This document shows, in pieces, positions 6,427 through 31,299 of a stretch of 64,000 nucleotides of DNA. Made by a program: the position numbers and the translations under genes. The stretch comes from Octopus sinensis. Lineage: Eukaryota. The first letter of the stretch is position 1. Each line of letters opens with the position of its first letter. The stretch covers positions 3,162,001 to 3,226,000 of the forward strand of contig NC_043009.1 in assembly GCF_006345805.1 (NCBI RefSeq), given 5' to 3'. The notes beneath the pieces are model-generated. The model searched no databases, was not told the origin of the DNA, and saw only the letters and a program-made list of their open reading frames with translations.

Positions 6427-6735
6427 GGAAGCGCAATGGCCCAGTGGTTAGGGCAGCGGACTCTCCGTCGGAGGATCGCGGTTTCAATTCTCAGACCGGG
6501 CGTTGTATGTGTTTATTGAGCAAAAACATTTAGAGCTCCGCGAATCTCCGGCAGTGGGAGGGGGGCACCCCTGTTGTACTCTTTCGCTCAAACTTTCTCT
6601 CATTCTCACTTCCTGTTTCTTGAGCAACGCTGCGATAGACTGGTGTCCCGTCCAGCTCGGGGGAACACATACGCCACAGAAACCGCCTGGCTAGACTTGA
6701 AAAGGGCGCATAAATAATAAAATAAATAAATAAAT
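6427..6735 (+). mobile_element. SINE family C, tail type 1
   Basis: tRNA-like head GGCCCAGTGGTTAGGGCAGCGGACT..GGTTTCAATTC; tail GCGATAGACTGGTGTCCCGTCCAG; (TAAA)n end. Confidence 0.85.
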
Positions 6736-7130: not shown

Positions 7131-7413
7131 CCACGTGATCACGTGACCGACCAGACCATCAGATGTTGTTAAACATCGCTGGTCACAATGCGTTCGCATT
7201 GTTTTAGCCTTCGAATGACGCCACCCCGCTGGCTAAGCGAGCAGGCCAACAGAAGAAAGAGTGGGTGAAAGGGTGGTGAAAGAGTACAGCTGGGATCCCC
7301 CCCACTGCCAGAGCCTCGTGTAGCTTTAAGGTGTTTTCGCTCAATAAACACACACAACGCCCGGTCTGGGAATCGAAACCGCGATCCTGCGACCGTGAGT
7401 CCGCTGCCCTAAC
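7131..7413 (-). mobile_element. SINE family C, tail type 2
   Basis: Same head and body as 6427; different tail ending GGTCGGTCACGTGATCACGTG, also seen at 34285-34405. Confidence 0.85.
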
Positions 7414-7690
7414 CTATATATATATATCTATATGTATATATTGTATATATATATATATATAATAGAAATATTTAAATTACTAAGTCTCTCTAAAAGAGAA
7501 CAACGGCAGCGTTTCCGGAAAATAATAGTTATCGCCATACTAATATGGCATTCTTATAAAAATAAGAATAAAGCTGTCCGCTTATTAGCTCCATGAGGCC
7601 ATCGCCTTAAGTTAGCTATTTGATACACAAACTGTATCCATAGAACCTTCGAACAAGGGAGGTCAGTCGCTCCACACTACTTGACCGGCA

Positions 7691-7732
7691 GCTACAGACG
7701 CGTTTCGGGGTATTGCCCCTTTTCAATGCAGC
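7691..7732 (-). ncRNA. Minimal type I hammerhead ribozyme (U3:A8 core)
   Basis: GCUGCA-UUGAAAA-GGGG caaua CCCC-GAAA-CGCG-UC^-UGUAGC: 6-bp stem I, 4-bp stem II, palindromic ACGCGU helix III. Confidence 0.85.
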
Positions 7733-8067
7733 GTAGCCAGACCAGTAGGTGTCGCTTCTGACAATCTCTGTTCGAAGGTTTTATTTACCTAGCTTCGGTG
7801 GAATACATCCACTTGTTTTCAATAATAGAAATATTAAAATTACTAAGTCTCTCTAAAAGAGAACAACGGCAGCGTTTCCGGAAAATAATAGTTATCGCCA
7901 TACTAATATGGCATTCTTATAAAAATAAGAATAAAGCTGTCCGCTTATTAGCCCCATGAGGCCATCGCCTTAATTTAGCTATTTGATACACAAACTGTAT
8001 CCATAGAACCTTCGAACAAGGGAGGTCAGTCGCTCTACACAGAAGCGACACCTACTGGTCTGGCTAC

Positions 8068-8109
8068 GCTGCATTGAAAAGGGGCAATACCCCGAAACGC
8101 GTCTGTAGC
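8068..8109 (+). ncRNA. Minimal type I hammerhead ribozyme, inverted copy
   Basis: Identical to 7691-7732 on the opposite strand; predicted cleavage after C8103. Confidence 0.85.
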
Positions 8110-8279
8110 TGCCGGTCAAGTAGTGTGGAGCGACTGACCTCCCTTGTTCGAAGGTTATATGGATACAGTTTGTGTATCAAATAGCTAACTTAAGGCGATG
8201 GCCTCATGGAGCTAATAAGCGGACAGCTTTATTCTTATTTTTATAAGAATGCCATATTAGTATGGCGATAACTATTATT

Positions 8280-8316
<37 letters not shown>

Positions 8317-17666: not shown

Positions 17667-17680
17667 TACTGTATTTATAT

Positions 17681-18319
17681 TAATAGCCAACATGGCAGTC
17701 CAGATAAATAGGACGAATACGGCCGTTGATTAGCTCCAAAAGGCCAGAGGAACAGGGGAGGTCAGCAGCTTCCCCTTGCTGGTCTGGACACAGGTTTGTG
17801 TCTCACATAGCTAGCTAGAGGGGATGGTCTCTTGGAGCTAATGAACGACAGCATTCGTCCTATTTATCTGGACTGCCATGTTAGCTTAGCGATAACTATT
17901 AATATCCAGTACCGCTGCCGTAGTTTCCTTTAGAGAGAATTAGAAATATTAATATTTCTATTTTTGAAAACCAGTAGATGTATTCCACTGAATTTAGGTA
18001 ATTGATCCTTCGAACAGACAGTCAGAAGCGACGCCTACTGGATTCAACTACTCGGCATTGATAAGAGGCAAACACCTCGAAACTAGTCTGTGGATGCCAG
18101 ACCAGCAAGGGAAAGCTGCTGACCTCTCCTGTTCGAAGGTTATAATGGACACAGGTTTGTGTGTCACATAGCGAGCTAGAGGCGATGGCCTCTTGGAGCT
18201 AATGAACGGCAGCATTCGTCCTATTTATCTGGACTGCCGTGTTGGCTTGGAGATACTCCTTAATATCCAGTACCGCTGCCGTAGTCTCCTCTAGAGACAA
18301 TTAGAAATAATGATATTTC
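17681..18319 (+). mobile_element. Hammerhead-bearing retrozyme/Penelope-pLTR-like element 2
   Basis: 361-bp tandem period (17785 vs 18146); 5' inverted segment ~17685-17785; 14-bp TSD TACTGTATTTATAT at 17667-17680 and 18320-18333; homologous to element 1. Confidence 0.85.
18055..18091 (+). ncRNA. Minimal type I hammerhead ribozyme (U3:A8 core), short stem I
   Basis: GCA-UUGAUAA-GAGG caaaca CCUC-GAAA-CUAG-UC^-UGU; palindromic ACUAGU. Confidence 0.75.
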
Positions 18320-18526
18320 TACTGTATTTATATATATGCAGAAATGAATCATGTTCTTCGTTGTCTTAGACGATAACGTGTCATTTGAATGAGATTTTAC
18401 ATGTAAGAAAATTGACCATAGATACACTCAGAGACACACTAAATAGGTTTTGATTTAAATACGGATGTGAAAACAACGGAATGACATAGAATGATGTGTA
18501 TTCCCATAACCATTTGAAATTCAATT

Positions 18527-29541: not shown

Positions 29542-31299
29542 GCTCACGCTGTCAGTTGTATTTTCTTTCTCTCTGTCGTTCACATACACGACCACCTCTC
29601 CCCCTTTCCTCACACACTTTCTCTGTCAAACACTCGATTTCTACATCCTTCTTTACGCGTTCCATCTACTTTGGATTTTATATCTTGTTTCACAGTTTTC
29701 TTTTCAAACCGTTTCTCCTTTTCTTATTTATCTTCTCAACTTATCCATTGAACACATTCTAACACACTATCTTACATAATATCGCTTCCTTATCTCCCTC
29801 TCATTCTCTGCAAGAATTTTCTTTCGTTGTTCACTTTTAAAAAGTACTCTCTCACTTTTCCAGTTTTTTTCTCCTTTTTCCTCTTGTTCGTTATTCTGTT
29901 TGTGCTACAGCCCCATAACTATATCGTAATTACATTACTCTCTTTCCCTCTCTTTCTCCTCGTTCTTTCACTTTGTTTCGCCATCTTTTTTTCTCTTTAT
30001 CGCTGTTCACTCTTTTCTTGTTGTCTTCCTGTATTACACTCCCATTCAATCGCGTACTCTTTAATTCACCGTCTCTCTTTTTCTCCATCTCTCGTCGCTT
30101 GACGAAATATGCATATGCAAAAGTCGTGCTATTAAGATTTCACTATTTCTCTTGATGTAATTAACACCTTTTTACTTACAAGCAATGGAACATATTTTCG
30201 ACATTAATTATATTTTCGTTGATTATTGGTATGAGGCATTTTTAGATATATTCTTCATCTATATTTACTACATATATAATTCCTTTTATTTGTTTTTGTT
30301 TCTCACCGCTTCTTTTCTCTCCGTTTGCTTTAAATGTTAGCTTTAATACAAACTGAAAACCAAAACAACAAAACAAAAATAATCAAATAAGATTTTTATG
30401 CAACGAAAGATTTAGTTTATTTCGTTTTAATAATTGGTGAGAAAATTGGTGTGAAAATGTTTCTATGATAATATTAAATAGATTGCGGTTAAAAGGATTA
30501 AAAGATGTATTTATATGTGGACAAGTTTATAGCAAAAGTATAGAATAATTTGAGCGATACTTATTAGATTTTCCAACTTCGTGGCATAGAAGTGAGGTGC
30601 GTTTAGATGCACATCATTATGCAGTGAAAGAACAATATGCAATTAAAATGTCTGCTTCTTTCTTTTATTCTACAAGCTAATGAAATACTTATTTATAGTT
30701 TGTTGTCTAACTCCGATGTTTTTATAATAATGTTATAAGCTGCTCTATATGAAACCTGGATAATTTGAAGATGTTTTCAAACTGAATGTAGGTATGAGCA
30801 ATATATGCGAGCATAAATTGAATTGTATATAATTCATAATATTGTTAGTGACCTCATTATAAACATCATTGACTGTGAACGACCCAAATGACTATACTGC
30901 AAGAGACAGTAGGATGCTTTATTTCATATATGTAGTGAGAAGCACCGTGTGTTTGTCCCTATCAGGTTTCTAGAATGCACAGTGAAGTTTTTTGATTTAT
31001 TGTCGTGTATTTCACAGGTAGTCTGTGTTAGTGGTGCTATTTTATCCCGTGGTGTTGTCGTTTAAACCCTAAGAGAGAAAACGTAACTATAGTAAAAAAA
31101 ATATATTTCTCACGCTGATCTTGTCACCTACACTCTGATCTTGTCTACTATTCTTTCTGACTTGTCCTGATGAGACAAAACCAGAGTGAAGAGGAAACAC
31201 GTCGTTGAAGAGGTCACCGAAGCTGTAACGAAAGAAGTCTGGCAAATAAACTAATAATTATTATAATTATAATAATAATAATAATAATGATGATAGTAA

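Follow-up and report, generated by a model that had tools for sequence, protein, structure and literature searches.

The element at positions 7461-8280 of the window (the whole 64,000-nucleotide stretch of Octopus sinensis DNA analyzed here, C13:3162001-3226000 of a 2.7-Gb genome) was judged, with a probability of about 0.72, to be an insertion of a young non-coding family made by a borrowed Penelope-type reverse transcriptase (RT)-endonuclease that primed one cDNA from each nicked strand. Template switching, which the first-pass annotation had given as the cause of the inversion within the element, was not favored. Independent double priming was preferred because the copies of this family have two fixed outer ends, duplications of about 12 bp and microhomology at their joints, and because fold-back is impossible in 10 of the 50 copies whose ends pair in the usual way. 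The double-priming reading is further supported by the end pairing of a sister family and by the presence of Neptune-type elements in the same genome.

The features of the locus (window 7415-8300) are as follows.
7415..7460, no strand: (TA)n tract flanking the element on the left and presumed to be the target of the insertion.
7461..7823, minus strand: unit A, a full 363-bp monomer; its outer end, 7461, is unit position 1 and the putative cDNA start 1.
7461..7520, minus strand: a "tail" of about 60 bp, present at the left end and lacking at the outer end of the inverted arm.
7691..7732, minus strand: type I hammerhead with a U3-A8 core; predicted cut at 7697/7696.
7824..8040, minus strand: unit B, a partial tandem repeat (unit positions 1-217) that stops short of its own hammerhead (positions 231-272).
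8040..8040, no strand: head-to-head junction of the arms, with a 1-nt overlap, base 8040 fitting both.
8040..8280, plus strand: inverted arm C, covering unit positions 300 to 60 in descending order; its outer end, 8280, lacks the tail and is the putative cDNA start 2.
8068..8109, plus strand: second type I U3-A8 hammerhead, identical to the first; predicted cut at 8103/8104.
7520..8280, no strand: predicted 241-bp hairpin of 7520-7760 with 8040-8280 and a 279-nt loop, as the fold of a read-through RNA.
8281..8300, no strand: first bases of the (TA)n tract flanking the element on the right.

Arm C is the reverse complement of 7520-7760 over 241 nt with a single mismatch (7643 versus 8157; blastn E 6e-123), and unit B differs from unit A at 4 of 219 aligned bases. 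The coordinates given in the first-pass annotation for the monomer at 7461-7823, the partial repeat and the strand switch at 8040 were confirmed, with base 8040 belonging to both arms. The outer ends correspond to unit positions 1 and 60, which is the common type in the family; the target-site duplication was unreadable at this locus, the flanks being pure TA. Unit position 183 is G in units A and B and in no other element, and is the majority T in arm C. No RT-endonuclease frame was found inside or adjoining the element, and the two open frames within it gave no Pfam match. Since no RT plus GIY-YIG frame lies in or beside it, the element is non-autonomous rather than an autonomous Penelope-like element (PLE). 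Two tRNA-like SINE copies lie nearby at window 6431-6540 (plus strand) and 7320-7414 (minus strand) and make up an inverted pair (92%); the second copy has its 5' truncation at the TA tract that hosts the element, from which it points away.

In the plus-strand hammerhead, stem I pairs 8068-8073 with 8104-8109 (6 bp), the core U3 U4 G5 A6 A7 A8 A9 occupies 8074-8080, and C17 is at 8103. The remainder consists of a 4-bp stem II, G12-A14 (GAAA) and a 2-bp stem III with a palindromic, self-complementary loop. The two 42-nt motifs are identical, and their placement in the first-pass annotation was right in register and in both cut sites. An alternative register, in which the core would be C-U-G-C-A-U-U-G-A and contain two inserted bases, was discarded; the 6-bp helix I register gives U3-A8, and this register was preferred because the older and sister families keep it. 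An Rfam scan produced no matches at the gathering score and no hammerhead among 16 matches at E up to 10, a miss that is probably due to the variant U3-A8 core.

The structure was supported by covariation across 31 copies (1 young and 30 of an older subfamily), in which 92.9% of the cells were paired and 21 cells were changed on both sides; none of 500 shuffles reached either value, the shuffle control being inflated by relatedness. The number of pairs with a double change was 6 compared to 3.8 in the shuffles, a value reached by 42 of the 500 in the same inflated control. By helix, the paired share was 94.1% in helix I, where 3 of the 6 pairs had double changes, 93.5% in helix II (2 of 4) and 90.3% in helix III, which showed no double change and whose loop mostly stays palindromic across families. 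The core pair 3:8 was counted by a pattern that fixes all other core positions and leaves decayed cores outside the counts; by this measure it was U:A in 119/119 young-family motifs, in 21/22 motifs of the older subfamily and in 16/16 minimal motifs of one Neptune-type PLE, and C:G in 14/14 motifs of a 352-bp sister family. Judged from their sequence, both motifs at the locus are real type I hammerhead motifs with a covariant U3-A8 core, with self-cleavage predicted after C17. Self-cleavage of the motif is not assured, since 8 of 9 predicted Xenopus dimers were without cleavage (bioRxiv 10.64898/2026.07.22.740005).

The replacement of C3-G8 in the canonical core (C3-U-G-A-N-G8-A, GAAA, NUH) by U3-A8 is a natural covariant reported for the PLEs of the Schistosoma Cercyon group (PMC4209133). 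The likeness to the minimal hammerheads of those elements is that core positions 3 and 8 covary alike, and motif pairs lying 100-700 bp apart on opposite strands are also noted there. Unlike in Cercyon, the variant core occurs here in a canonical-size hammerhead of a non-coding tandem family, for which a C3-G8 sister family exists. A separate hammerhead-like motif with a canonical C3-G8 core was observed at window 31165-31210, outside the 363-bp family; it lies directly after a minus-strand stretch that resembles the 3' terminus of a different retrotransposon.

The family to which the element belongs is numerous. The genome contains at least 1052 exact matches to the ribozyme pattern, with none in the reversed control, and a DNA search returned 1280 candidates, of which the 40 scored ones were at 95-100% identity. 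The median substitution from the majority allele was 1.4% (157 near-full units), and the earlier description of a young insertion thus holds at the level of the family. In composition, 151 of the 363 bases of the monomer are G or C, and the fold of the circular monomer was predicted at −119.7 kcal/mol (z −7.2), with 0 of 100 shuffles as low. Arrays reach 10 units in one arm (L129), and at least two complete consecutive hammerheads on the same strand were present in 36 of 85 family elements, a set that does not include the present locus with its one hammerhead per strand.

These properties fit the metazoan non-LTR retrozymes, and on sequence grounds the 363-bp family appears to belong to them, with the present locus as a truncated member. 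The likeness (PMC7229834; bioRxiv 10.64898/2026.07.22.740005) lies in non-coding tandem units in the range of 170-400 nt with a GC content below 50%, in a single canonical type I hammerhead in each unit, whose helices I and II measure 6 and 4 bp and whose helix III is short and palindromic, and in duplications of more than 4 bp, a highly self-paired predicted circle and PLEs in the same genome. The differences are the U3-A8 core in every one of the 119 young-family motifs counted and the frequent inverted arms with two fixed ends, which the available text of those two sources does not describe for retrozymes. Under the published rule for an "active" retrozyme, at least two consecutive complete hammerheads on the same strand are required (bioRxiv 10.64898/2026.07.22.740005).

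Two relatives of the family were recognized. The older subfamily has 2311 candidates in the genome and one copy in the window, at 17673-18321. That copy has 75-79% identity and the same layout as the element at 7461-8280, with a full unit and a partial tandem on the minus strand and a short inverted arm from near position 60; its U3-A8 hammerhead lies near 18050-18095, and a duplication of 14 nt can be read at its ends (17667-17680 and 18320-18333). The young 352-bp sister family (L086:6935-7270; L166-L180) has 2096 candidates and a C3-G8 hammerhead, helix III being an 8-nt palindrome in most copies, and its tail is 44 nt. Among 13 sister-family loci, 8 were two-armed, and 6 of these 8 join an end at 1-2 with an end at 45-51.

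Some arrays of the 363-bp family have features of their own. In the ten-unit arm of L129:1921-5483 (C1:169359420-169362982), rare alleles recur with a period of 4 units, which could reflect either block duplication after insertion or a tetrameric template. Several insertions (L107, L111, L125, L129, L133 and L152) are broken at unit position 298; three of them (L107, L125 and L133) have a common flank at this position, which suggests a composite element or segmental copies with captured flank.

The data on the two-armed layout came from a parsed set of 82 loci, comprising 22 of 30 loci from the DNA search (8 overlaps or duplicates of the same insertion being dropped), 50 regions containing the position-ordered ribozyme-pattern matches listed, and 10 further places from the DNA search. 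After exclusion of one diverged element with less than 85% identity, 85 elements were available, of which 61 were head-to-head two-armed and 24 single-armed, four entries of the single-armed set being halves of two interrupted insertions (L108 and L156). The outer ends of the 61 two-armed elements paired position 1 with positions 57-65 in 50, and 1 with 1 in 2; 62 with 62 was found in none, and 9 had one irregular end. Restricting the count to the position-ordered loci left 34 two-armed copies, of which 28 had ends at 1 and 57-65. Mixed ends in 50 of 52 copies compares to 50% under a free choice of site (p 6e-13).

Target-site duplications were called informative when they were 8 nt or more and contained a C or G. 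Such duplications bracket both arms in 17 of the 50 mixed-end copies, at lengths of 8-17 nt with a mode of 12, lengths that may be slightly overestimated, given the likeness of the element ends to TA; the mismatched-flank control gave a mean of 1.0 and a maximum of 4. A TA tract was present at one or both ends in 39/50. The 61 junctions comprised 29 that were flush and resolved, 16 with inserted bases and 16 unresolved; an overlap of at least 2 nt was seen at 25 of the 29, compared to 16% for random joins. The positions of the junctions showed no clear enrichment at the ribozyme cut (236/237) on inspection, 7 of 100 falling in 225-241 against about 5 expected. The divergence was 1.03% between opposite arms, 1.06% between units within one arm and 2.40% between different elements, and the arms of one element were therefore attributed to one source lineage. 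Of 119 common minor alleles, 113 were present in all units of both arms. A further 30 rare alleles occurred in two or more units of an element. Of these, 9 were shared by every unit in both arms, 5 were carried by some of the units in both, and 16 were restricted to a single arm, with the present locus among the last cases.

The proposed origin of this layout is as follows. The minus strand of unit A corresponds to the ribozyme-sense RNA, and both outer ends would therefore lie on the RNA 3' side, as expected for starts of cDNA. A Penelope-type RT-endonuclease would nick both strands of a TA tract, with a stagger of perhaps 10-12 bp, and each nick would serve as primer for a cDNA, with one start at site 1 and the other near site 62. 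Both cDNAs would run in the same direction along a circular or multimeric RNA; at the present locus, the cDNA begun at site 1 would have been 580 nt long and the one begun at site 60-62 would have been 241 nt long. Both would end at variable points and be joined through short homologies, the outcome being tandem-plus-inverted DNA with a tail at one end only. The RNA of source copies with at least two same-strand hammerheads would be cut into monomers and circularized. This proposal is in line with what is described for PLEs, where the tandem and inverted layout, the one-ended tail and the TA bias are typical (PMC8557442), and where the tail equals the spacing of two RT start sites and, in vitro, cleavage and extension take place on both strands (PMC11167929). 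Searches of an open-access library gave no description of double priming in Penelope-type insertions or of the 363-bp family itself. Against the proposal, the tail of about 60 nt exceeds the 30-40 bp given for PLEs (PMC8557442), 24 of the 85 elements have a single arm, and fold-back is possible in 40 of the 50 mixed-end copies and could also give rise to the symmetric junctions at 4 of the 50.

A monomeric circle as template would explain the one-of-each end pairing and the 9 rare alleles that every unit of both arms carries. It is not fully supported, because 16 of the 30 are seen in a single arm and 5 in some units of both arms; such one-arm and some-unit alleles need later array turnover or a multimeric template. 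It is possible, and suggested here only tentatively, that a dimer of the Penelope RT-endonuclease acts on a single circular retrozyme RNA with one start site per nick. Both subunits would travel around the circle, the cDNA ahead being displaced by the subunit behind it, and the ends released in this way would anneal. One site per nick would follow because a single circle has only one copy of each start site.

The strongest of the alternatives is the template switch or fold-back, in which the 3' end of the cDNA anneals to itself and is copied back by the RT to give the inverted arm. The geometry permits this at the present locus and in 40 of the 50 mixed-end copies, the subfamily alleles common to both arms are compatible with it, and junction microhomology would be expected from it too. 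The junctions at the same unit position on both arms (4/50) are of the kind it could produce; in L024, L130, L145 and L162 such junctions lie on short self-complementary words and give palindromes without a spacer. Fold-back was nevertheless considered unlikely. It is impossible in 10 of the 50 copies whichever arm comes first, a number that agrees with independent arm lengths (permutation mean 14.4, 95% range 9-20). It also requires a fixed stop near 62, yet single-armed copies (L117, L123, L127, L155 and L158) likewise have outer ends at 59-62, as would be expected of a start site. At the present locus, both tandem units carry the G at position 183 that arm C lacks, although this is one site only. 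The strict pairing of an end at 1 with one near 62 speaks against the notion that two independent insertions into one TA tract, or a later DNA rearrangement, gave the inverted arm. TA tracts are indeed repeated targets, as the 39 copies above show, and arrays do change after insertion, as indicated by blocks of shared alleles in L121 and L129, but a single duplication brackets both arms in 17 copies and opposite arms are as similar as units within one arm and closer to each other than to other elements, so that this origin was given little credence.

Double priming by a Penelope-type enzyme, the preferred reading, leads to the question of its partner element. A Pfam search of the genome gave 5030 candidate GIY-YIG frames, of which 150 were scored, and 50 loci, some overlapping, were fetched. 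These contained several full-length Neptune-type frames of 775-781 aa with RT, CX4CXXC linker and GIY-YIG. One Neptune-type family, abundant and young (L063:1-2462, L102-L105), has 780-781-aa frames and ends in (TA)n, with a tail of about 36 nt in 7 of the 18 3' ends listed (two rows being the same insertion). It carries a minimal U3-A8 hammerhead about 100 nt before its 3' end, and its optional tail matches sequence that immediately precedes the frame. No pLTR homology to the monomer was found in the 50 GIY-YIG loci by blastn, by a profile of 33 monomers or by local alignment, which stayed at shuffle level. Profile matches in L072, L082 and L086 were rejected as the partner's pLTR, being separate inserted repeats; the repeat beside the PLE in L086 has its own TA tracts and belongs to the sister family. 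The mobilization of the 363-bp family by a Penelope-type enzyme is thus inferred, since no autonomous element with the monomer sequence was present among these 50 loci (150 of the 5030 candidates scored). In this respect the family differs from Xenopus, where 21 PLEs matched retrozyme families (bioRxiv 10.64898/2026.07.22.740005).

The likeness to EN+ PLEs of the Neptune clade (PMC8557442, PMC11167929) extends to the partial tandem and inverted layout, the one-ended tail, the AT-rich or (TA)n targets, the hammerhead in the repeat and the two adjacent start sites. The differences are that no RT-endonuclease frame is present here, that the hammerhead is canonical rather than minimal, and that the tail, at about 60 nt here and 44 in the sister family, is longer than the 30-40 bp of PLEs. 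In addition, the rule of one site per arm is quantified here, whereas in vitro the starts are alike on both strands (PMC11167929).

The double priming itself could be right and the enzyme that of another non-LTR retrotransposon. In L1 twin priming, two primers from two target nicks yield a head-to-head inversion with a microhomology joint and one duplication, which resembles the layout of the locus. Microhomology joints and duplications are features of LINEs too, and these points, together with a PLE partner that is not matched by sequence, speak for such an enzyme. The second L1 primer, however, uses a variable internal site upstream on a polyadenylated RNA, whereas here both sites are fixed, about 60 nt apart. 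The unit also lacks a poly(A) or simple-repeat 3' end, the local Neptune-type elements have the same TA target, tail layout and U3-A8 core, and PLEs alone are described as combining a one-ended tail with two fixed start sites (PMC11167929); a different non-LTR enzyme was accordingly regarded as very improbable. Least probable of all is that the inversion at 8040 is a chimeric-read or assembly artifact, for although inverted repeats between microsatellites are hard to assemble and the 8040 junction is absent from the 15 of 60 joints listed for contigs of four public runs, the inversion does not extend beyond the element, its arms are separated by 279 nt, its two flanks are unlike and it ends at the second fixed site of the family, arm C has another base at position 183 than units A and B, and all 15 joints listed (runs X3 and X1, 4 in both) join a forward to an inverted-arm position. 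Forward-to-inverted junctions therefore exist outside this assembly at the level of the family.

The RNA output of this copy was considered from its predicted fold. The first-pass annotation had proposed that a transcript from either strand carries one ribozyme and a duplex of about 240 bp. As a description of the sequence this stood, the duplex being 241 bp if read through, but the hammerhead is predicted to be buried in the duplex. For the 820-nt read-through RNA of either strand, the hammerhead stems had a probability of 0.0 and the pairing to the antisense 0.999; on both strands, the antisense of each hammerhead is transcribed first. Since unit B stops before its own hammerhead, there is only one hammerhead per strand, and since this one is fully paired to its antisense in the predicted fold, no release of a monomer is predicted. 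The RNA of the locus therefore probably neither cleaves nor frees a monomer and is likely a dead end. A long duplex of this kind would, if transcribed, suit ADAR or Dicer. No excess of A>G or T>C was found among the rare substitutions of the genomic copies, which are DNA and not RNA (A>G 29 and T>C 24, compared to C>T 68 and G>A 43). Of 230 non-repetitive open frames, 150 were scanned for a host exon and none matched Pfam, a search that short exons could escape. Pieces of the family were present in contigs of runs X11 and X12, which are guessed to be RNA and whose contigs carry no strand, ends or level, and none of these contigs bridges a unit junction by 31 letters on both sides. Hammerheads lie on both strands in 33 of the 85 elements examined, and if such loci are transcribed, long hairpins could be common.

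The locus alone is probably an ordinary, inert copy, and the significance lies in the family. Which enzyme moves the animal non-LTR retrozymes is called open, with PLEs as strong candidates (PMC7229834; bioRxiv 10.64898/2026.07.22.740005), and how PLEs make tandem and inverted copies with a one-ended tail is likewise called open (PMC8557442). The rule of one site per arm in 50 of 52 copies, with duplications of about 12 bp, is a sharp prediction for the existing in vitro PLE assay. The family is short, young and of high copy number, and its U3-A8 ribozyme and the C3-G8 ribozyme of its sister form a natural pair. If the tentative proposal of an enzyme dimer on a single circle were true, a single step would account for three traits of Penelope-type insertions, namely the inverted arm, the tail and the tandem units, and the copies would be evidence from the genome that Penelope enzymes do use animal ribozyme circles as their templates.
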